This document shows positions 25,490 through 56,563 of a DNA stretch of 64,000 nucleotides, piece by piece (the first letter of the stretch is position 1; every line of letters begins with the position of its first letter). A program made the translations under genes and the position numbers. Under the pieces are notes generated by a model. That model was not told the origin of the DNA. It worked only from the letters and a program-made list of their open reading frames with translations, and did not search any database. Origin of the DNA: an uncultured SAR86 cluster bacterium (GTDB taxonomy: Bacteria > Pseudomonadota > Gammaproteobacteria > Magnimaribacterales > AG-339-G14); contig CACOBG010000003.1 of assembly GCA_902625415.1 (NCBI GenBank), positions 79,507-143,506 on the forward strand, read 5' to 3'.

Positions 25490-25566
25490 TGGTAGACACG
25501 CCCGGATTCGAACCGGGGACCCCTACCATGTCAAGGTAGTACTCTAACCAACTGAGCTACGTGTCT
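25490..25566 (-). tRNA. tRNA-Val(GAC)
   Basis: AGACACG/CGTGTCT acceptor, TAGCTCAGTTGGTTAGAG D-arm, CTACC-TTGACAT-GGTAG anticodon arm, GGTTCGAATCC T-arm, encoded CCA. Confidence 0.97.
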
Positions 25567-41160: not shown

Positions 41161-41245
41161 TGGTGCGGATAGAGGGAGTCGAACCCCCACACCTTTCGGC
41201 ACTAGAACCTAAATCTAGCGTGTCTACCAGTTCCACCATATCCGC
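41161..41245 (-). tRNA. tRNA-Leu(TAG)
   Basis: GCGGATA/TATCCGC acceptor, CTAGA-TTTAGGT-TCTAG anticodon arm, long variable arm, GGTTCGACTCC, CCA. Confidence 0.97.
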
Positions 41246-44352: not shown

Positions 44353-47647
<3,295 letters not shown>

Positions 47648-47648
<1 letters not shown>

Positions 47649-50080
47649 TAACTTGCGGCCATTTTAAGAGCTTCATCAACATCTACAGAAACCAATCTTG
47701 ATACACCAGGTTCCTGCATGGTAACACCCATAAGGTGTTTACTTTTTTCCATTGAAATTTTATTGTGCGTTACAAAAATAAATTGAACCTTTTCGGACAT
47801 TTCTTCAACCATATTGATAAATCTTGAAGTATTAAAGTCATCCAGTGGAGCATCTATCTCATCAAGAATACAAAAAGGCGCTGGATTTAGAGAAAAAAAG
47901 CTAAATACCAATGCTATAGAGGATAAAGCTTTTTCTCCGCCCGACAACTGAGAAACATTTACATTCTTTTTTCCTGGAGGCATAGCCTTAAAAAGCACTC
48001 CGGATTCTAATAAATCTCTTTCAGTTAATTCTAATTTTGCGAAACCGCCGCCAAATAGTTTTGGAAAAAGCTCACCTAATTTAATATTTAGCTTGTCCAA
48101 TGTATCCTTAAATTTTGTTCTTGATTCCAAATCAATTTTCTTAATCGCCCCTTGCAAGGTTTCCAGCGCACTATTCAATTCGGACATTTGAGTATCAATT
48201 TCAGAGTTTCTTTCTTCTTCTAATTTGTACTCTTCTGCAGCAGCTAAATTTATCGGACCAATTCTTTCTATTGAAGTTTCAATTTTTGAAATTTCTTCTA
48301 CCAATGACTCCTCAGTCATATTTTCGGTAATTTCATCAAGTAATCCTTGAATCTCATAATTGTCGTTTTTAAGTTGTTCTTCAAAAATTGCTGATTCAGA
48401 AATAAACCCTTGTCTTTCTAATTTATATTTTTGAATATCCCTATTAAAGTCTTCAAGACTGAGATCGGTTTCATGAATTCTTCGTTCGTTGGCTCTTATG
48501 TTTTCATTTAAATCATTAAAATGTTCTCTAAGTTTTGACAGGTTTCCCTCTACGTCTATTCTAGAGTCTAATAAGGGCTTAATATCTGCTTCAATTTTCT
48601 CTATCGGGCCTTCAATCTCATGAAGCTTTTCTTCAAGAGAGTTTTTTGCAGTAATAGTATTGAGCTTGGAACTTTCGATTGCAGATAATTTACTCTTAAT
48701 TTCAGCTACTTTTACTTTGAAAGACGTAATTTCTGAACTCAAAGAAAGGAGTTCAGTTTTTTGAGCCTTAAACTTTTCTTCTTGATATTGAGATTGATGT
48801 TTAATTGATTCCTTTAGTTTTTCTAGCTTGTTCTTAATCTCAAGAGCAAAAGAATGAATTTCTTGGATATCGCTCACTGTTTTTGTTGAGAAATCCCTTG
48901 TAGTCTCTTCTAAAGAAACTGTTAGATTAGACACATCAAGAAAGATTTTTTCTACCAGAAAATCTGGAGACATTGCTCCCTCAAGTTTAGAAAAGCTTTC
49001 GTCTAGGGCTTGAAGTTCTGGTTCTTTTTTTGAAAGTTCTAATTCAGCGTCAGACAACTCTTTTGATAAATTATCTTTATCGGAAGAAAAACTATTTAAA
49101 GACTCTTCCATTTGGTCCTTTTCTAAAAGCAGATCCTTTCTCTTTTCTTTTAACAAAGATAATTCTTGCTCGGAACTACTAAGGTCCGCGCCACTAGAAT
49201 AGTAATCCTGTTGAACTTTATCTATTTTTTGTTGAATTTCAGATTGAGTTACCTTGGATTTATCTATTTCGGAGTTGAGTGAGATTTTAAGAGTTCTTTC
49301 TTTTTCAAGGCTTGATTCAAGTTCTTTGATTGATAAATCTATATTTGAAATTTTTTCTTTTCTTGTTTGCCATGATATTGCTTTCAAAAGGCCTTTTTTT
49401 GATTTTTCTTCAGCTTTTAATGCTTCGTATCTTTCAGCTGACTTTACCTGTCTTTTAAGTTTTAAAAGCTGTCTTTCAATCTCATCTTTAAGATCTTTAA
49501 CTCGACTGAGATTCTCTTTAGTTTTCTTAATTCTTGATTCAGTTTCTTTTTTTCTTTCGCGATAAACAGAAATGCCTGCAACTTCTTCAATGTACATTCT
49601 TAGTTCTTCAGGTTTAGAACTTATTAGCTTAGTCGCCATTTCTTGTTCAATGACTGCATAACTTCTAGGTCCGAGACCAGTACCAAGAAATATATCTGTA
49701 ATGTCTTTTCTTCTGCATTCTGAGCCGTTTAAAAAGTAGATAGATCTCCCATCAATTTCTAAAACTCGTTTGACAGAGATTTCTGAATAGCTTGAATATT
49801 CTCCTCCTAATTTTCCTAAAGAATTATCAAATAAAAGTTCCACAGAAGCACGACTCGATGGCGCTCTGGATGATGATCCGCTAAAAATAACATCGGCCAT
49901 ATTTTCGCCTCTTAAATTTTTAGCAGATATTTCTCCCATAACCCATCTAACAGCGTCAATAATATTAGATTTACCGCAGCCGTTAGGCCCGACTACTCCG
50001 CTCATGCTGCTGGGGAAGGAAATTTTCGTGGGGTCCACGAAAGATTTAAAACCAGATAGGCTGATGTTTTTTAATCTCAT
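47648..50080 (-). CDS. smc: Chromosome segregation protein SMC, short form without recognisable hinge
   Basis: GFKSF, GPNGCGKSN, YAVIEQ, GPINLAA.EE, LSGGEK, LDEIDAPLD, FVTH, GVTMQEPGVS. Confidence 0.92.
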
Positions 50081-50129: not shown

Positions 50130-50678
50130 CTAATTTTTAAGCTCTTTTAATGCAAGATTCATTGCAATAATCAAGGATTCTTTTTCTTTATTATTAGTAG
50201 AATTTTCAAGGGCTATTGACCAGCTTTTGAGGGCTTCCTCAAAGTTATTTTGTTGAAAATAATTTAAACCTTGAAGTGATAGAGCTCTTGTATCGGACGG
50301 ATTTAAATATAAAGATTTTTCTAAATGGTTGACGACGTCGCTACTAAATTTACCTTGTAATTCATAATATGACTCTGCAAGAAAAGAATGTACGCTAGAG
50401 TCAATCAAATCTGGATATTCATCTACCAAAAAATTAAAACTTTTAATTGCTAATTTAAATTTTTCGTCATAAAAAAACCTCTTACCAGAGAGCATTACTT
50501 CTGAAGCATTCAAGTATTTAAAATCTATCTGAATATCATGCGGCTTATCTGAAGTAAGAAACGTAAAGTAATCGTCCTGAAATGCAAATTTTTTTAAAGA
50601 GCCATAACCTTGGACCAGAAAAAAAAGAAAAAAAGAAAAAATGATTATTGTGAAGTAGCTAATAACTCTAAAATTCAT
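50130..50678 (-). CDS. CcmI/CycH-like TPR protein
   Basis: N-terminal TM, TPR (L..NP.D..AL.L.G..YFQ.NNF.EA...W); last gene of the ccm operon. Confidence 0.65.
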   Translation of the reverse strand: MNFRVISYFTIIIFSFFLFFLVQGYGSLKKFAFQDDYFTFLTSDKPHDIQIDFKYLNASEVMLSGKRFFYDEKFKLAIKSFNFLVDEYPDLIDSSVHSFLAESYYELQGKFSSDVVNHLEKSLYLNPSDTRALSLQGLNYFQQNNFEEALKSWSIALENSTNNKEKESLIIAMNLALKELKN

Positions 50679-51043
50679 TTTTTTAAAAAATTGAAAAGAA
50701 AGAATATTCCAATAACGATCAGCAATAAAGGAAATCCATATAAAATTGAAATTGATATTTTATTTTCTGGCATAAATAAAATTCCCTCACCATAAAGTTT
50801 GATTAAATTACTTTTAATTTCTCTAGGAGTTTTGCCATTTTCAAGCTCAGTAAAAATGGCGTTTTTCAAATCATTTGCTATGTCTGAATCAGATTCTGCA
50901 ATGGAGGATCCTGCACAAAGAGGACAACTTATTTCCTGTGATAACTCAATAAAATCCTTTTCTAAATTTTCATTCGAAAAGTCATAAATATTCTTCGCTT
51001 CTAAAGAAAAAGATAGAAAAAAAACTGGTATCAAGAACAACAT
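50675..51043 (-). CDS. ccmH: Cytochrome c maturation CcmH
   Basis: ISCPLCAGSSIAESD, YGE.IL..P; start approximate. Confidence 0.9.
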   Translation of the reverse strand: MLFLIPVFFLSFSLEAKNIYDFSNENLEKDFIELSQEISCPLCAGSSIAESDSDIANDLKNAIFTELENGKTPREIKSNLIKLYGEGILFMPENKISISILYGFPLLLIVIGIFFLFNFLKK

Positions 51044-51045
51044 TT

Positions 51046-51555
51046 TTATTTATCGATTAAGGGAATAAATTTATCTTTCCAAACTTTTTCAGACATGATG
51101 CCGATATGTTTTTGTAAAATTTTATCCTCTCTAAGAAGATAAGTTTCCGGTGCTCCAGATACTCCAAGATTAAAACCATATGCACCTTCTTGATCATAAA
51201 GATTTACGGAATAAGGATTTCCATATTGATCTAACCATTTAAGCGCTTTTTCTAAATCATCTTTATAGTTCAAACCAACAATGTTCCAACCTTCGGTTTT
51301 TTTTGCCATCAGAAATCCATGTTCTAACTTACAATTAATACACCACGTAGCCCAAACGTTTAATAAAGAAAATTCATTCCTTTTTAATAAACTTACATCC
51401 AGAAGATTTCCATCAAAAGTTTTTATCTCTCCTGAGGGTAGATTTTTTTCTGGAAAATTAAACTCGCCCTCTTCAAAAAGATTTGCAAAAAAAATAGAGA
51501 AGATAAATAAAGTCAAAATTAGAGAAAAATAACCTATATATCGTGTGATTTTCAT
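51046..51555 (-). CDS. ccmG: CcmG/DsbE thiol:disulfide oxidoreductase
   Basis: NVWATWCINCKLEH, GLNYKD, GNPY, GV.GAPET. Confidence 0.92.
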   Translation of the reverse strand: MKITRYIGYFSLILTLFIFSIFFANLFEEGEFNFPEKNLPSGEIKTFDGNLLDVSLLKRNEFSLLNVWATWCINCKLEHGFLMAKKTEGWNIVGLNYKDDLEKALKWLDQYGNPYSVNLYDQEGAYGFNLGVSGAPETYLLREDKILQKHIGIMSEKVWKDKFIPLIDK

Positions 51556-53411
51556 AAGCTTTTGAATCTAAACAAACTTAAAAATCCTCCTAAAGCCATT
51601 ATCAAAGCTCCCAGCCAAATGAGTCTAACAAAAGGCTTCAATTGAGCCTTTACCACCCAACCCTCTTCAACCTGGTCTCCAATAGAAATATACAAATCTT
51701 CTTTGATAGAAGGATATATTGCCGCTTCAGTCATTACTGATTTTGAAACAGGATAATACCTTTTCTCAGCAATCAAATTAAACTCCTGATTTAAATTTTC
51801 CACTCTAAAACTTACTTCATCTGAAGAGAAATTTTTAGCAATATTTTTTTCTTCTCCAAGATAAGTGATTTTATAATTTTCCAATTCAAAAGGCTTTTCC
51901 TTGAAAGCGATTAATTCTTTTTGAGATTCTAAAGATGAAACAAGTCCTATTCCTAAAATCATTATTGCTATTCCAAAATGTGAAAATCCCATTGATAAAT
52001 TCACTTTTCTAGAATTTTTTATTTGTAAAAAAGCGTAATAAATTAGACCTGCCAAAATACTAGAGATCATTAAGTTCGTTACTGTGATTGATACTGAAAT
52101 ATTATTTAAAAAGAGAGCACTCAAACTAACAGTCAATAAAATCAAGATTACAAAATAAAAGTACAAAGTTTTAGGCTTGGTTGTTCTTGACGACCAGTTG
52201 CTTAGAATTCCAAATCCTTGAAAAAAAGCCAAAAAGAATGCAATGGGCACGGTTACTGAATCAAAATAAGGCTTGCCCACAGAAATATCTTTTCCTCCAG
52301 AAAAGATTTCATAGATTATTGGATAGATAGTCCCAAAAAGAATAGCAACCGCCAAAATAATTAAAAAAACGTTATTGATTAAAAAGAAAAATTCTCTAGA
52401 AAGAATAGATCCATATGTATAACTTAAATCGGTTAGTTTTGAGCTTGAGTAGATAATCAAAGAAAAAATCAATACAAATAAAATTATAAAAAGAAGAATT
52501 AAACCTCTTTCAGGATCTAGGGCAAAGGTGTGAACTGAGGTAACAACCCCAGACCTAACTAGAAATAAGCCAATGTAGCTAGATAAAATTGCACCTAAAG
52601 ATAAAAGCACCGTCCACTTAGAAAAAATATTTCTCTTTGAAGTGGCTATTGCAGAATGAATTAAAGCTGTTGCAATAAGCCAAGGTATTAAAGAGGAATT
52701 TTCAACTGGATCCCAAAACCACCAACCTCCCCAACCAAGTTCATAGTAAGCCCACCAACTTCCCAGTGCGATACCCAAAGTTAAAAATGACCAAGAAATT
52801 ACTGACCAATTTTTTAAATCGCTTGCCCAATTTTTATAACTTGGGTCTATGCAACGCGCCATAGCAATAGCAAACGGTAAAGTTAGAGCGGTATAGCCAA
52901 GATAAAGAGTTGGCGGATGAATGGTAAAAGCAAAATCTTGCAGCAAAGGATTTAAGTCCAAACCTCCTTCGGGAGAGAAAGGAAGTAATCTTTCGAAAGG
53001 ATTTGAAGTAAAGATTACAAAACCTGAAAAAAGGGAAAATATGACGAATAGAAAAAATATGCCAAAACTAGATTGAGATTTTAAGTAGAAAATCAAAGTC
53101 CAAAGACTAAGAAATAAAAGATACAAAAGCATAGAACCTTCATGACCACCCCATAGTGCAGCAAATTTATAATAATCAGGCAGATTTTCATTAGAGTTAT
53201 TTGCCACATACAAAACACTAAAATCGTCAGTTAAAAAACTTATTTCAAGACATATAAAACTCAATAGAACACTGAAAAAGAATAGATAAACTATTTTAGG
53301 AGAAATAATGAAATTGTTATTTCTATAAAATGAGAAAGAGTTGCCGAAGACATAAAAACTAGAAATGGTAAAAGCTAACACTAAAAATAATAAACCTATT
53401 TCTGGAATCAT
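51552..53411 (-). CDS. ccmF: Heme lyase CcmF
   Basis: WGGHEGS, LNPLLQ, HPP.LY.GY, WAYYELGWGGWWFWDPVEN, SVHTFA. Confidence 0.97.
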   Translation of the reverse strand: MIPEIGLLFLVLAFTISSFYVFGNSFSFYRNNNFIISPKIVYLFFFSVLLSFICLEISFLTDDFSVLYVANNSNENLPDYYKFAALWGGHEGSMLLYLLFLSLWTLIFYLKSQSSFGIFFLFVIFSLFSGFVIFTSNPFERLLPFSPEGGLDLNPLLQDFAFTIHPPTLYLGYTALTLPFAIAMARCIDPSYKNWASDLKNWSVISWSFLTLGIALGSWWAYYELGWGGWWFWDPVENSSLIPWLIATALIHSAIATSKRNIFSKWTVLLSLGAILSSYIGLFLVRSGVVTSVHTFALDPERGLILLFIILFVLIFSLIIYSSSKLTDLSYTYGSILSREFFFLINNVFLIILAVAILFGTIYPIIYEIFSGGKDISVGKPYFDSVTVPIAFFLAFFQGFGILSNWSSRTTKPKTLYFYFVILILLTVSLSALFLNNISVSITVTNLMISSILAGLIYYAFLQIKNSRKVNLSMGFSHFGIAIMILGIGLVSSLESQKELIAFKEKPFELENYKITYLGEEKNIAKNFSSDEVSFRVENLNQEFNLIAEKRYYPVSKSVMTEAAIYPSIKEDLYISIGDQVEEGWVVKAQLKPFVRLIWLGALIMALGGFLSLFRFKSL

Positions 53412-53830
53412 TTTTCAAGAGCCTTTTTTACTTCTTTGGGAACATAGTTTTCATCATGCTTAGCTAAAATTTGATAAGCATCAAGACTCATCTTGCTTTT
53501 ATCAAAGTAGCCTGTAGCAACTACTCCAGCGTTTTCTTTAAATAAATCTGGAAGAATGCCTGTGTAATTTACTGCAATAGATTTTTTTAAGTCAGTAATT
53601 ATGAATTCAATTTCTAAAGAGTCTGTTGCTCTCCTTACACTTCCAATTTCAACCAAACCTCCTGCTCTGATTGCATTTCTTCCTTGAGGTGGATTCTCAA
53701 ACAAATCTGATGGTGAGTAGAATAAATTTACATTGTCTCTGATGGCAAGATAAACCAAAACAAAAGCAAGGGCTGAACAAAAAACTATGAACAGAACTCC
53801 ATAAAGTCTTTTTAATCTATGTTGTTTCAT
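53408..53830 (-). CDS. ccmE: Heme chaperone CcmE
   Basis: GILPDLF.E, LAKHDENY. Confidence 0.96.
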   Translation of the reverse strand: MKQHRLKRLYGVLFIVFCSALAFVLVYLAIRDNVNLFYSPSDLFENPPQGRNAIRAGGLVEIGSVRRATDSLEIEFIITDLKKSIAVNYTGILPDLFKENAGVVATGYFDKSKMSLDAYQILAKHDENYVPKEVKKALEK

Positions 53831-53954
53831 TATTTTTTATCTTGGATTCGTTCTTTTTTATTTTTACTAGAGGCAAATAAATTAAAAGCAAGCAAATAAA
53901 TCCCGTTATTGAAACAACCGACCAGATATGAATATTAAATTCTCCAAAATCCAT
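53817..53954 (-). CDS. ccmD: Heme exporter protein CcmD (45 aa, not in the ORF track)
   Basis: MDFGEFNIHIWSVVSITGFICLLLIYLPLVKIKKNESKIKNNETT: single TM with IW and a basic tail, located between ccmC and ccmE. Confidence 0.75.
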   Translation of the reverse strand: MDFGEFNIHIWSVVSITGFICLLLIYLPLVKIKKNESKIKNNETT

Positions 53955-53956
53955 AG

Positions 53957-54706
53957 TTAATTATTGCTTGAAAGTTTTTTGAACCATTCCTTGTTTTGCT
54001 CTCTGGAAGATATTTCTGCTCTCATAAAAAGGAGTCCAGTAAAAAAAACAAACAAATAAACTCCTAAAATTGAGAGTAGTAATGGGATAAGCATTTCACT
54101 GGAAATAGAGGACCCACCGGAAATAGATATTGATGCAGGTTGATGAAGGGTATTCCACCAATCAACTGATTTTTTTACTATCGGAAGATTTACAACCCCA
54201 ACCAGGGTTATTATAGAAACTGCAGTGTCAGCAGACTTTCTAGAGGTAAAAGTCGATTGCATGCCAATGATTGCCAAATAAAATAAAAAAAGTACTAAAG
54301 TAGAGGTCAGGCGAGCATCCCATACCCACCAAGTTCCCCAAGTTGGCTGTCCCCAGATAGCTCCGCTTAGCAATCCAATAAAGGTAAAAGCTGCACCTAT
54401 TGGAGCAAGGCTTTTAATATAGACTCCTGCCATTTTCATTCGCCAAATTAAAAAAACTGCTGCCGCAACAGACATTGAATAATAGATGACTTGAGATACA
54501 GATACCGCTGGAACATGAAAATATATTATTCGATAAACATCTCCTTGAACCGCATCAGTAGGAGAGAAAAATAAGCCCCAAATAGAAGAAATGACTATTA
54601 ATGAAATACTGAAAAATCCCACAATTGGAATTACTTTGCCAGAGATTTTGTAAAACCAAGGAAAAGATCCAAGTTTATGATAAAAATTCTTTAATACCTG
54701 AAACAT
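53957..54706 (-). CDS. ccmC: Heme exporter CcmC
   Basis: YFHVP, WGQPTWGTWWVWDARLT (WWD domain), WWNTLHQ. Confidence 0.97.
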   Translation of the reverse strand: MFQVLKNFYHKLGSFPWFYKISGKVIPIVGFFSISLIVISSIWGLFFSPTDAVQGDVYRIIYFHVPAVSVSQVIYYSMSVAAAVFLIWRMKMAGVYIKSLAPIGAAFTFIGLLSGAIWGQPTWGTWWVWDARLTSTLVLFLFYLAIIGMQSTFTSRKSADTAVSIITLVGVVNLPIVKKSVDWWNTLHQPASISISGGSSISSEMLIPLLLSILGVYLFVFFTGLLFMRAEISSREQNKEWFKKLSSNN

Positions 54707-54708
54707 AT

Positions 54709-55368
54709 CTAATTAAAATGAAGTTTCAATGCCCCTACCGAAGCAAACAAAATAATTGGCAACAAAAAAATAAGTATTGCTGTAAGTAACAAAATATTTG
54801 AAGAAAAGTTAATGCCGTTCAATGAGTAATTAATCGCCTGAGTTCCTAATATTAAGACTGGCAAACTCAAAGGCAACATTAGTGCGGGTCCAGTGATGCT
54901 GTTTTTTCCAAGAGAAAGTGCTCCAGCTAGCGCCCCAAACAAACAAATGGTGGGAGTTCCAATTAACAAACTTATGATTAAAGGTTTTAAGCCTTCCTGA
55001 GGAAAATAAAGTAAAAAAACAGACAAAACAGAAAGGATGATGATTGGTAAACAACTAAAAATCCAATTCACAAAAATTTTTATCAAAACAATCAATGAAA
55101 GATTTTGTCCAGAAGCCAATAAAAGCTCAATGCTTCCATCTTCATAGTCTTCGGAAAATATATTTTGAAAAGATATTAAAGTGGATAACAGGACAGTAAT
55201 CCAAATTAAACCAGGGGCTAAATTTTTTAATATATCTGGATCGTTGGAAATTCCAATTGGATACAAAGAAATAGAAATCAAAAAAAAGACTACTGGGCTA
55301 ATGAAAGACGAAGACTTTCTTGAATAGATAAGAAATTCCTTTTTAAGTATTTTTATAGGATAGATCAT
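54709..55368 (-). CDS. ccmB: Heme exporter CcmB
   Basis: PG..W...LLS, F.EDYEDGS.E, LPL..P.LI. Confidence 0.92.
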   Translation of the reverse strand: MIYPIKILKKEFLIYSRKSSSFISPVVFFLISISLYPIGISNDPDILKNLAPGLIWITVLLSTLISFQNIFSEDYEDGSIELLLASGQNLSLIVLIKIFVNWIFSCLPIIILSVLSVFLLYFPQEGLKPLIISLLIGTPTICLFGALAGALSLGKNSITGPALMLPLSLPVLILGTQAINYSLNGINFSSNILLLTAILIFLLPIILFASVGALKLHFN

Positions 55369-55946
55369 CAGTTAAAAAGATTCATATCAATTAAAGGAAA
55401 ATCATCACTAGATCTATCATGAGATGAAAAAATAATTTTTGCTCCAGCATTTATTTTCAAATCAAAGATTTCTAGAAGAAGATCAGTCGTTTTGCGATCT
55501 AAATTATTGAAAGGCTCATCAAGAAGATAGAGATTAGCTGCTGAAAGAATAAAACTTGCAAGATTTATTTTTCGTTTTTGCCCTTCTGAAAGATATGCTG
55601 ACTGAATATCAGCATGATCAATAAGGTCTAGTTTATCGAGAACAGAATTAATCTGGGAATGAGAAATTTCAGGCAATCTGATATCAAAATAAATGTTCTC
55701 TCTAGGTGATAAATTATTTTTTAATCCGGTTTTATGACCCGAATAAAATACTAAATTATCATCTGGAAAAGATAATTCTCCTTCATAATTTTTATAGATG
55801 CCTGAAAGAATTTTCAGCAAAGTTGATTTGCCAGAACCATTGTCTCCTACGAGCTTAAAAACACTGTCGTTTGCGAATTCAAAGCTCAGATTTGAAAAAA
55901 TATATTTATCATCAAACTTGTATGATAAATTTGCTGTTTTTAGCAT
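55368..55946 (-). CDS. ccmA: Heme exporter ATP-binding CcmA
   Basis: GDNGSGKST, GH..GLK..L...EN, LSEGQKR, LLDEP, SSH. Confidence 0.9.
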   Translation of the reverse strand: MLKTANLSYKFDDKYIFSNLSFEFANDSVFKLVGDNGSGKSTLLKILSGIYKNYEGELSFPDDNLVFYSGHKTGLKNNLSPRENIYFDIRLPEISHSQINSVLDKLDLIDHADIQSAYLSEGQKRKINLASFILSAANLYLLDEPFNNLDRKTTDLLLEIFDLKINAGAKIIFSSHDRSSDDFPLIDMNLFN

Positions 55947-56487: not shown

Positions 56488-56563
56488 GCCCTTGTAGTTT
56501 AATCGGATAAAACGGCCGCCTCCTAAGTGGCAGCTCCAGGTTCGATTCCTGGCAGGGGCACCA
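56488..56563 (+). tRNA. tRNA-Arg(CCT)
   Basis: GCCCTTG/CAGGGGC acceptor, GCCGC-CTCCTAA-GTGGC anticodon arm, CCAGG-TTCGATT-CCTGG T-arm, CCA. Confidence 0.95.

Follow-up and report, generated by a model that had tools for sequence, protein, structure and literature searches.

What joins the two arms of an Smc protein that has no hinge? The question is raised by a gene of an uncultured SAR86 cluster bacterium (contig CACOBG010000003.1), an abundant marine organism with a tiny genome; the gene was found in a stretch of 64,000 nucleotides that was analysed as a whole and is called the window here. To our knowledge, every well-studied SMC complex links its two ATPase arms by a hinge, or by a zinc hook in the case of Rad50, and models of how DNA is entrapped and loops are extruded give roles to the closure of this apex. 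The laboratory work known to us indicates that a different dimeriser can stand in for the hinge fold, while we know of no demonstration that the hinge can be dropped altogether.

An initial annotation, made from the nucleotide sequence, placed an unbroken 810-aa ORF with all head motifs at 47648–50080, within a canonical smc-zipA-ligA locus. The coordinates stand, and the strand, which had not been given, is minus according to the ORF list; read on the plus strand, 47648–50080 holds many stops, whereas translation shows the intact frame on the minus strand. The ORF list, the translation and the alignments also bear out the completeness of the frame and of its head motifs. The features discussed below are as follows.

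47648..50080, minus strand: smc (hinge-less Smc), 810 codons and a stop (ORF list, translation, TIGR02168, PF02463)
49586..50080, minus strand: N-terminal half of the ATPase head, about residues 1–165 (invariant columns; alpha/beta in the AF2 model at 1–170)
49967..49990, minus strand: Walker A, G31–S38 (invariant columns), in the head half that also holds the Q-loop Q146
48977..49585, minus strand: N-terminal arm helix, about residues 166–368, with a single helix at 171–367 (AF2, full length and fragment)
48878..48976, minus strand: apex replacing the hinge, with a break at A369-M-S-P372, a hydrophobic tip helix at 373–395 and a loop at 396–401 (AF2)
48161..48877, minus strand: C-terminal arm helix and joint, about residues 402–640, with a helix at 402–572 and short elements at 577–605 (AF2)
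47651..48160, minus strand: C-terminal half of the ATPase head, about residues 641–810, including the H-loop H772 (invariant columns)
47933..47947, minus strand: signature LSGGE, residues 712–716 (invariant columns)
47840..47875, minus strand: Walker B and D-loop, residues 736–747 (invariant columns)
47004..47648, minus strand: zipA, 214 aa (ORF list; ZipA_C, E 1.4e-16)
44950..46998, minus strand: ligA, 682 aa, NAD-dependent DNA ligase (Pfam: DNA_ligase_aden, E 5.8e-96, with OB, HHH and BRCT)

Downstream of smc and on the same strand lie zipA, whose start shares one base with the smc stop, and then ligA. ZipA is also the next same-strand ORF after a full-length smc in 6 of 10 genomes sampled from the class, in line with the locus order first proposed. 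The head itself is that of a bacterial Smc. Read off the translation, it carries the Walker A (G31-S38), the Q-loop (Q146) and the signature (L712-SGGE716), followed in its C-terminal half by Walker B (L739-D740-E741), the D-loop (D743-D747) and the H-loop (H772), and these motifs are invariant across alignments of 20 and of 70 sequences. Pfam SMC_N (PF02463) spans residues 3–794 (E 5.7e-56), and the NCBIfam model of bacterial Smc, TIGR02168, scores 792.6 bits, above its cut-off of 567.35. The latter match falls into two stretches that skip the centre of the model, the first aligning residues 2–368 with model positions 1–365 of 1181. Solved Smc heads are matched with E 1.8e-97; the N-terminal half of the head finds 5xg3_A, 3zgx_A and 5h68_A, and residues 629–804 find 5h66_B. 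Models of related families stay below their cut-offs: 38–50 bits against 700–1087 for Rad50, 24.5 against 407.85 for RecN (TIGR00634), 55.8 against 300 for an archaea-specific SMC-related protein (NF045487) and 26.1 against 860 for arcadin-4 (NF053563), and the MukB N-terminal domain (PF04310) has no match on the protein. As judged from sequence, the gene is by descent and position an orthologue of the bacterial Smc of the Smc-ScpAB condensin.

The centre of the protein departs from this family. No SMC_hinge (PF06470) match was obtained on the protein even at E<=1, as the initial annotation had expected of a Pfam scan, nor anywhere in the source genome; across the order, 0 of 151 genomes contain the hinge family, versus 250 of 300 in the class, a comparison to be read with the knowledge that the Pfam model misses true hinges, given that 7 of the 17 hinge-negative class genomes carry a full-length SMC (1156–1230 aa). 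None of these 17 has a short SMC. Since the Pfam hinge model is unreliable alone, the weight of the case for absence is carried by the alignment gap and the structure models. The entire hinge block is missing from the alignment, and hhalign of the central region against the hinge profile gives a probability of 0.05%, with all four control hinge segments matching PF06470. The full-length AF2 model (mean pLDDT 79.4) contains nothing but helix between residues 171 and 676. A cryptic hinge was rejected on the combined results of Pfam at E<=1, the hhalign comparison with the hinge profile and AF2 of both the fragment and the full length; the divergent central hinge fold that would have counted against the first reading was thus looked for by hhalign and AF2 and not found. 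The only cysteines in the translation are C35, C122 and C737, and the central CxxC zinc hook, also noted as lacking at the outset, is absent.

The loss extends beyond the hinge, as roughly 90–100 residues of each adjoining arm are missing as well (alignment, AF2). The arms measure about 230–240 residues versus about 320–330 in the class references, and the protein falls short of its full-length relatives by about 360 aa, close to the original estimate of about 350 aa; the length of about 1150–1200 aa then assumed for bacterial SMC is consistent with the class sample. An antiparallel intramolecular coiled-coil arm is present in the AF2 model, formed by helices 171–367 and 402–572 and closed by a hairpin at 368–401. 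The central peptide singled out at the outset, GAMSPDF...ALEIK, corresponds to residues 368–416 (nt 48833–48979) and maps inside nt 48790–48990, where only a short helical segment had been seen; AF2 agrees that it is helical. At the centre stands a simple hairpin of the form helix-break-helix-loop-helix (pLDDT 88.9 in the AF2 fragment; 56–65 at the tip in the full-length model). Hydrophobicity peaks at the tip helix, with a fraction of 0.52 versus an arm mean of 0.28, and in 7 of 9 sequences from families f1 and f2 of the order no other 21-residue window of the arm is as hydrophobic as this helix (0.43–0.62 versus 0.28), the peak being weak or absent in families f3 and f4. A motif conserved at the family level, QEEKF..QK..LL.LS.EIT at 433–452, faces KEP..GAMSP at 352–372.

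Structure searches place the apex among coiled coils in general. Foldseek of the apex fragment against the PDB yielded nothing at E<=0.001, with Smc coiled-coil fragments ranking first. The wide VIA-align search returned generic antiparallel coiled coils with Z<=13.4, inside the background for helical models, including the Rad50 rod 6zff (Z 11.7) and the Smc arm 5xg2 (Z 12.8). Foldseek and VIA-align speak neither for nor against a specific likeness to the Rad50 hook, the MukB hinge or RecN. The ESM Atlas matches for residues 340–470 are unnamed clusters at 0.89–0.90 and add no information.

The short form is a trait of the whole order. A match was found in 58 of 61 related genomes, and all complete genes, including those from single-contig assemblies, are short; among the best 120 matches of a protein search, 112 have exactly 810 aa. 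The open frames measure 809–843 aa in f1 and f2 and 728–734 aa in f3 and f4, with 995 aa in one genus; that genus apart, the SMC proteins of all relatives surveyed in the order measure 728–830 aa. Three arm lengths occur, of about 200, 240 and 330 residues, and the longest arose when both strands of the arm underwent matching internal duplications. A tree from which the trait columns had been left out groups the 24 hinge-less rows on one side of a branch (SH-aLRT 100), in agreement with one loss in the order's ancestor. Two named single-cell genomes put the order within SAR86. The gene is under purifying selection and is not decaying: its overall dN/dS is 0.034–0.051, with 0.03–0.13 in the apex and 0.04–0.08 in the arms, and the apex dN is the highest of all regions at greater distances.

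Contigs from 10 studies contain the smc stretch, with no insertions or deletions reported in the metagenome contigs over the gene, and one independent metagenome contig of 2237 nt covers 47806–50042 with 0 gaps, spanning the centre. Contigs from RNA libraries also cover smc; as DNA can occur in such libraries, this cover is no proof of transcription, and the parts of the stretch that they leave uncovered carry no meaning. One metagenome run contains a joint of 48261 to 49472, with 32 letters on the shorter side, which we regard as a cross-match. That odd joint is all that speaks for an artefact, be it a deletion introduced in assembly, a pseudogene or a wrongly binned piece of a full-length smc. 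The relatives and their single-contig assemblies, the uniform database lengths, the independent contigs and a dN/dS of about 0.04 all speak against it, and we give an artefact practically no credence. An assembly deletion, which had been named as a possible refutation, is contradicted by the same short gene in relatives and independent contigs.

The partners of Smc have been kept. In the source genome scpA and scpB are adjacent, and ParB is present. Across the order, ScpA occurs in 41 of 41 genomes examined and ScpB in 77 of 81 (53 of 53 among those of high quality), and both matches cover their Pfam domains over the full length. The initial annotation had asked for scpA and scpB in the genome and had reckoned that their absence together with relaxed selection would undermine its reading; both genes are present as neighbours, and dN/dS lies at 0.03–0.05. 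In the source genome, which is 90.6% complete, neither MukB (PF04310) nor a second SMC (SMC_N profile) was found, the only other protein over the SMC_N cut-off being of RecF size (341 aa). The hinge-less Smc is the only SMC-type condensin found there. RecN (TIGR00634) was likewise not found in the source genome and exceeds its cut-off in 0 of 41 high-quality genomes of the order.

The hydrophobic tip is the candidate for a joining element. Two copies of residues 310–490 were predicted together in three runs, alongside three unrelated-protein controls. The tip pair scored 0.62 (0.62, 0.64 and 0.60 in the runs) and the best control 0.00, figures to be read against the readiness of predictors to pack isolated helical hairpins into four-helix bundles and the fact that the controls are not coiled-coil hairpins. 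The score lies over a mark that 20 of 30 proteins with a same-chain pair structure attain, as does 1 of the 23 whose structure is a single chain. At least 78% of contacts are common to the runs, and the pLDDT of the partner is at least 68. In the prediction, helix 373–397 contacts helix 405–427 of the other chain with i+j of about 799, which is the register of the intramolecular hairpin; residue 383 contacts its own counterpart, and the apex 369–401 forms the core of the interface. The contacts fit a four-helix tip in which the chains lie parallel and side by side, their arms co-aligned, and a domain swap would explain them equally well. The two-copy prediction thus supports tip-to-tip binding at the level of a model. 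Of the earlier proposal, a different apex in place of the hinge stands; the dimer prediction favours the parallel arrangement over the RecN-like antiparallel one that had been suggested. The tip is unrelated in sequence and length among families f1, f2, f3 and f4, and it is no more conserved than the arms (column entropy of 2.1–2.3 bits versus about 2.05). Within f1, the predicted interface residues are barely more conserved than their neighbours (0.59 versus 0.55).

We consider it probable, with reservations, that the protein is an Smc orthologue without a hinge that works with ScpAB and uses its hydrophobic tip as a minimal dimerisation element replacing the hinge. The ancestor of the order would have lost the globular hinge together with roughly 90–100 residues of each adjoining arm, leaving a normal ABC head on an antiparallel arm of about 230–240 residues that ends in a plain hairpin. 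Judging from co-retention, the hinge-less Smc would still load on and organise the chromosome with ScpAB. By homology, two protomers would be held via ATP-dependent head engagement and the ScpA bridge; the hydrophobic tips may associate laterally as a four-helix bundle, with the arms zipped into a rod, as the prediction has it. Such a tip would stand in for the hinge much as the Rad50 zinc hook can in engineered B. subtilis Smc.

The apex might instead not dimerise at all, which we hold to be possible but on the unlikely side. The Smc pair would then be joined only by the heads, in the ATP sandwich, and by the ScpA-ScpB bridge, with DNA held only in the head/kleisin compartment and arm closure by a hinge dispensable in this lineage. 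Such a free hairpin would agree with the lack of any tip sequence or length common to the families, with a tip conservation no higher than that of the arms, with arm lengths that vary among about 200, 240 and 330 residues, as they could more easily without a fixed apex geometry, and with the retention of ScpA and ScpB at full Pfam coverage. It sits badly with a tip helix that is unusually hydrophobic for an exposed hairpin end and with the two-copy score over the mark (0.62 versus 0.00 for controls). The functional B. subtilis constructs described in the available part of PMC5344682 keep some dimerisation module, another point against it. As a more speculative and rather doubtful view of the apex, the arms may never be permanently joined and the ring would stay unclosed, an option that the initial annotation had also named, the head/kleisin compartment and transient zipping of the arms organising the DNA; if so, the variation in arm length (about 200, 240 and 330) would record exploration once the constraint of the hinge was gone.

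A change of job, in which the protein would chiefly tether DNA for repair, in the manner of RecN or otherwise, instead of acting as a loop-extruding condensin, seems to us quite improbable. The failure to find RecN in the source genome, or over its cut-off in the 41 high-quality genomes of the order, would favour it, as would the layout of a head with a shortened coiled coil, which we take to resemble that of RecN. Against it stand the 792.6 bits as Smc compared with 24.5 on the RecN model, the position of the gene at the smc locus beside zipA, the retained condensin partners ScpA and ScpB and loader ParB, and the invariant head motifs.

Compared with bacterial Smc (TIGR02168; heads 5xg3, 3zgx, 5h68 and 1e69), the SAR86 protein has in common the head sequence, the ATPase motifs and the head-proximal part of the arm, and its genome shares ScpA, ScpB, ParB and, as in other Gammaproteobacteria, the zipA neighbour. 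Identity to full-length relatives is about 41–49%. It differs in the absence of the hinge (about 180 aa), in arms shorter by roughly 90–100 residues each, in its length (810 aa versus 1130–1190 aa) and in arms that join through a helix-loop-helix hairpin. With Rad50/SbcC and RecN it shares the ABC head, plus an antiparallel coiled coil that has a small apex and no hinge, and it is set apart from Rad50/SbcC by the missing CxxC zinc hook and scores of 38–50 bits (cut-offs 700–1087), and from RecN by 24.5 bits against a cut-off of 407.85.

The closest experimental parallels are the engineered B. subtilis Mini-Smc and Smc(Zh), which likewise combine short arms with a small unrelated apex and which, in the part of PMC5344682 available, can support growth. 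According to that part of the paper (Burmann et al. 2017), cells whose Smc carries the Pyrococcus Rad50 zinc hook instead of the hinge grow normally, and the fold of the dimerisation domain was concluded to be irrelevant to B. subtilis chromosome segregation. The same source gives arm-length modes of 163, 238 and 341 aa and a functional class of 253–267 aa; the SAR86 arm of about 230–240 aa lies near the natural 238-aa mode and that functional class, and the arms of about 200 aa in other families of the order fall outside the three modes. The engineered forms, as described there, retain a hinge or a zinc hook, both proven dimerisers, whereas the SAR86 tip is cysteine-free and its dimerisation is predicted.

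Our literature searches on SAR86 SMC or chromosome segregation and on 'hingeless SMC' found no relevant report, and a search on bacterial SMCs lacking a hinge found, apart from a RecF report, only PMC12153180 (Environ Microbiome 2025;20:65). Its accessible part describes an oceanic hinge-less SMC clade, attributed to Actinobacteria (class Actinomycetes), which like the SAR86 Smc consists of abundant marine homologues annotated as COG1196 that lack hinge and CxxC and have hairpin arms in AlphaFold models. The comparison is by description, the supplements of that report giving OM-RGC identifiers. In the accessible part the clade comes without genome context, partner genes or a resolved lineage, all three of which are in hand for the SAR86 Smc; it may be the SAR86 clade mis-assigned, or an independent loss. 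Hinge-less oceanic SMCs had thus already been reported in 2025, and, as far as the accessible part of that report goes, the placement in the SAR86 order, the partners and the selection are new here.

A protein kind known only as an unplaced metagenomic cluster is now assigned a lineage, partners and a selection regime. Throughout an order whose members are highly abundant in the ocean, Smc has been retained under strong selection alongside ScpA and ScpB, with ParB present in the source genome, although the apex is nothing but a helical hairpin. The three arm-length classes of the order provide a natural data set on the constraints acting on arm length, and its sequences lend themselves to biochemistry as they stand. 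The SAR86 Smc offers a natural experiment on the purpose of the hinge: either a minimal dimeriser tip may suffice in its place, or closure of the apex may be dispensable.

The smc ORF (47648–50080, minus strand) encodes the 810-aa protein P0001. The initial annotation was right about an uninterrupted frame of this length; the strand is minus, and the plus-strand reading of the interval contains many stops. The head motifs it had claimed are all present and show no variation in either a 20- or a 70-sequence SMC alignment:

Residues G31–S38, Walker A
Residue Q146, Q-loop
Residues 712–716, signature LSGGE
Residues 739–747, Walker B/D-loop
Residue H772, H-loop

Pfam SMC_N covers residues 3–794, and TIGR02168, the NCBIfam equivalog for bacterial Smc, scores 792.6 bits (cut-off 567.35) in two matching stretches that skip the centre of the 1181-position model. 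ZipA and then LigA follow on the same strand. Since ZipA is also the next same-strand ORF after the full-length SMC in 6 of 10 gammaproteobacterial genomes, the gene occupies the ordinary smc position, in agreement with the canonical smc-zipA-ligA locus proposed initially. The neighbouring features are:

25490–25566, 41161–41245 and 56488–56563, three tRNA genes
47004–47648, minus, ZipA (214 aa), its start overlapping the smc stop by one base
50130–50678, minus, TPR CcmH-like protein, part of the cytochrome c maturation (ccm) row
50130–55946, minus, ccm gene row directly upstream of smc, recognised by ORF lengths and partial Pfam matches

ZipA measures 230–325 aa in gammaproteobacterial genomes with a full-length SMC versus 214 aa here. 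The genome is streamlined, and trimming seems to extend to the ZipA linker. The order of the window's genome comprises four families, f1 (that of P0001) to f4. A LigA-size ORF (>600 aa) lies downstream of smc in f1, f2 and f4; the next large same-strand ORF in f3 (loci L029, L031, L035, L027 and L028) is 427–428 aa.

The window's genome (1.22 Mb, 25 contigs) is 90.6% complete. An smc match was present in 58 of 61 genomes, own and relatives (36 of 37 of high quality), and all complete copies are short; a comparison of ortholog lengths had been suggested by the initial annotation:

f1, open frames of 809–817 aa, genes of 810 aa
f2, genes of 821–830 aa
f3 and f4, 728–734 aa
one f3 genus, 995 aa

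Among the best 120 matches in a collection of 5.8 billion proteins, 112 are exactly 810 aa, and the remaining 8 are fragments of lesser length; precomputed Pfam annotation assigns the hinge family to none of the 120. Of the best 150 cluster representatives from 1.84 billion proteins, only four combine a short length with the lack of a hinge (810, 827, 732 and 995 aa); another two, shortish at 990 and 1071 aa, visibly retain hinge sequence, and all others measure 1132–1188 aa. The window stretch is present in runs of 10 studies. An independent seawater metagenome DNA contig of 2237 nt spans 47806–50042 with 14 substitutions and no gaps, which together with the short relatives speaks against the assembly deletion that had been considered. 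A 499-nt contig from another study spans the apex with one difference, and no insertions or deletions were reported in metagenome contigs over smc. Contigs from two RNA libraries span the smc centre and are compatible with transcription. In metagenome run X4, one contig joins 48261 to 49472, skipping 1210 bases (shorter side 32 letters, depth 118); the likely cause is cross-matching, either with another organism or through coiled-coil low complexity.

P0001 has no Pfam SMC_hinge match even at E<=1, as expected, and the family is absent from all 151 genomes of the order scored (4 families, 21 genera; 55 of high quality). In the Gammaproteobacteria it is found in 250 of 300 genomes, four genomes flagged unpublished being counted in and one further genome being unscorable. 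A missing match is by itself no evidence of hinge loss: of 17 gammaproteobacterial genomes without one at E<=0.01, none has a short SMC, and seven (G171, G173, G181, G182, G207, G215 and G234) carry full-length SMCs of 1156–1230 aa whose hinge the model overlooks. Given this limited sensitivity of the Pfam model, the decisive evidence is the alignment gap and the hinge profile comparison. The hinge segment of four gammaproteobacterial references (about residues 489–675, PF06470 matched by all four) and the adjoining arm segments are entirely a gap in all members of the order, and the centre of the short proteins shows no relation to the gammaproteobacterial hinge profile (hhalign probability 0.05%, E 0.8). 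Nor did the search for a divergent central hinge find a strand between residues 171 and 676 in the full-length AlphaFold2 model. With the trait region excluded, a maximum-likelihood tree places the 24 hinge-less rows together on one side of a branch (SH-aLRT 100), which is compatible with a single loss of the hinge, with the caveat that the composition of many rows is deviant and AT-rich.

The AlphaFold2 model of P0001 (70-sequence alignment, mean pLDDT 79.4, pTM 0.49) comprises:

1–170 and about 677–810, alpha/beta heads
171–367, single helix
368–372, break, sequence AMSP
373–395, tip helix
396–401, short loop
402–572, helix
577–605, short joint elements

Fragment 300–500 folded alone (11 sequences) gave the same elements at pLDDT 88.9. 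Structure searches with it returned only generic antiparallel coiled coils, the Smc arm fragments 5xg2 and 5nnv among the best; Foldseek gave no match at E<=0.001, and VIA-align reached Z <=13.4, inside the stated helical background. Placing the loop centre near 399 and the head limits near 170 and 630–640 gives about 230–240 residues per arm, versus about 320–330 in the gammaproteobacterial references; about 90–100 residues per arm are lost along with the hinge. Burmann et al. 2017 (PMC5344682) report that natural prokaryotic arm lengths have modes at 163, 238, 341, 423 and 515 aa and that function recurs with a period of about 91 aa, which places f1 and f2 near the 238 mode, one period under canonical length, approximately so since head boundaries differ from theirs.

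One f3 genus encodes a 995-aa hinge-less SMC (P0151; L027:2501–5485 and L028:2501–5485, both plus strand), its sister genera having 728–732 aa. In windowed self-BLAST, residues 218–328 resemble 338–448 (29% identity, E 2e-16) and residues 571–688 resemble 714–827 (35%, E 2e-24); P0001 has no such internal repeat. The duplications are matched on both arm strands, so the arms were re-lengthened to about 330 residues, near canonical length. The SAR86 single-cell genomes SCGC AAA076-P13 and AAA168-P09 have records of this type and are also among the public records with close relatives; since PMC9771814 names AAA076-P13 among the genera of SAR86, we call the order SAR86-type. Arm shortening with the hinge kept also occurs, as indicated by P0162 (990 aa) and P0253 (1071 aa), shortened SMCs of other lineages with recognisable hinge sequence, and by smc matches only about 2772 nt long in Treponema and other spirochaete records.

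In 7 of 9 f1 and f2 sequences, hydrophobicity over 21-residue windows of the whole arm peaks at the tip helix (DFLVEKIFLDVSNLTVSL...), with a hydrophobic fraction of 0.43–0.62 versus an arm mean of 0.28 (s.d. 0.06), which suggests burial beyond the two-stranded coil. A two-copy prediction for residues 310–490 (35-row alignment) scored 0.62 (runs 0.62, 0.64 and 0.60), the best of three controls, all without coiled coils, scoring 0.00; among proteins of solved structure, 20 of 30 pairs of one chain and 1 of 23 single chains attain the score mark. At least 78% of contacts are shared between runs, with partner pLDDT of at least 68, and as a prediction this supports binding between the two copies. 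Confident inter-chain pairs connect helix 373–397 of one copy with helix 405–427 of the other at i+j ~799, which is the hairpin's own intramolecular register; residue 383 touches residue 383, and contacts repeat every 3–4 residues along the C-arm to residue 474. We read the predicted tip as a parallel, side-by-side four-helix bundle with co-aligned arms (a rod), rather than the tip-to-tip antiparallel overlap of the RecN-like apex first envisaged. A domain swap would produce identical contacts.

A serious rival is an open apex, in which the arms are not joined at the tip. Tip sequence and length are unrelated among the four families: f1 carries the motifs KEP..SKLEGAMSP and QEEKF..QK..LL.LS.EIT opposite each other just under the tip, the f2 loop is larger by 12–17 residues, f3 has a shorter tip with ELSPxEK, and f4 differs again. 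Moreover, tip entropy equals that of the arm, and predicted interface positions in f1 hardly exceed adjacent positions in conservation (0.59 versus 0.55). Against an open apex stand the two-copy score relative to its controls and the hydrophobic tip helix. Predictors readily bundle isolated hairpins, and given this bias and the points on conservation, tip dimerisation of P0001 is assigned only moderate odds.

Selection on the gene is not relaxed, a possibility the initial annotation had raised: dN/dS (Nei-Gojobori) against genus mates is 0.034–0.051 overall and, in unsaturated pairs, <=0.013 in the heads, 0.04–0.08 in the arms and 0.03–0.13 in residues 366–430. The partner genes were also to be checked; scpA and scpB adjoin each other on another contig of the window's genome, and within the order all 41 high-quality genomes examined encode ScpA, while ScpB is encoded in 77 of 81 genomes (53 of 53 of high quality). 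ParB is encoded in the window's genome, and MukB was not found there. An SMC_N search of this genome returned over the family cut-off only the P0001 gene and a 341-aa RecF-size protein; a 925-aa frame, probably UvrA or another ABC-type ATPase, reaches it only by summing its matches, and the remaining matches fall below. P0001 is apparently the sole condensin of the SMC class in this cell. RecN (TIGR00634) has no match in the window's genome and none over cut-off in 41 high-quality genomes (this one and 40 others), the weak matches in the order being SMC itself and RecF-size proteins.

By descent, position, head sequence and partners, P0001 is the Smc of Smc-ScpAB. The canonical Smc has a hinge, whereas P0001 lacks this defining architectural feature and is therefore a variant rather than a canonical member. 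Rad50/SbcC, RecN, MukB and the archaeal SMC-related protein were ruled out by cysteines, Pfam, NCBIfam scores and genome search. A zinc hook is absent, as had been noted for CxxC: the cysteines of P0001 are limited to C35, C122 and C737. An engineering precedent comes from B. subtilis Smc, which, according to PMC5344682, supports normal growth with a Pyrococcus Rad50 zinc hook in place of the hinge and is functional with shortened arms in defined length classes; the title of PMC6969161 likewise states that the 'Rad50 zinc hook functions as a constitutive dimerization module interchangeable with SMC hinge'. Among published natural cases the nearest is an abundant oceanic cluster, hinge-less and without CxxC like P0001, from a 2025 metagenomic study (PMC12153180), which assigns it to Actinobacteria without genome context. 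We found no hinge-less SMC in SAR86 in the literature.

The hinge-less, short-armed Smc is real, under selection and conserved across the order, and most likely still works with ScpAB. Such natural hinge-less sequences make the role of the hinge directly testable.
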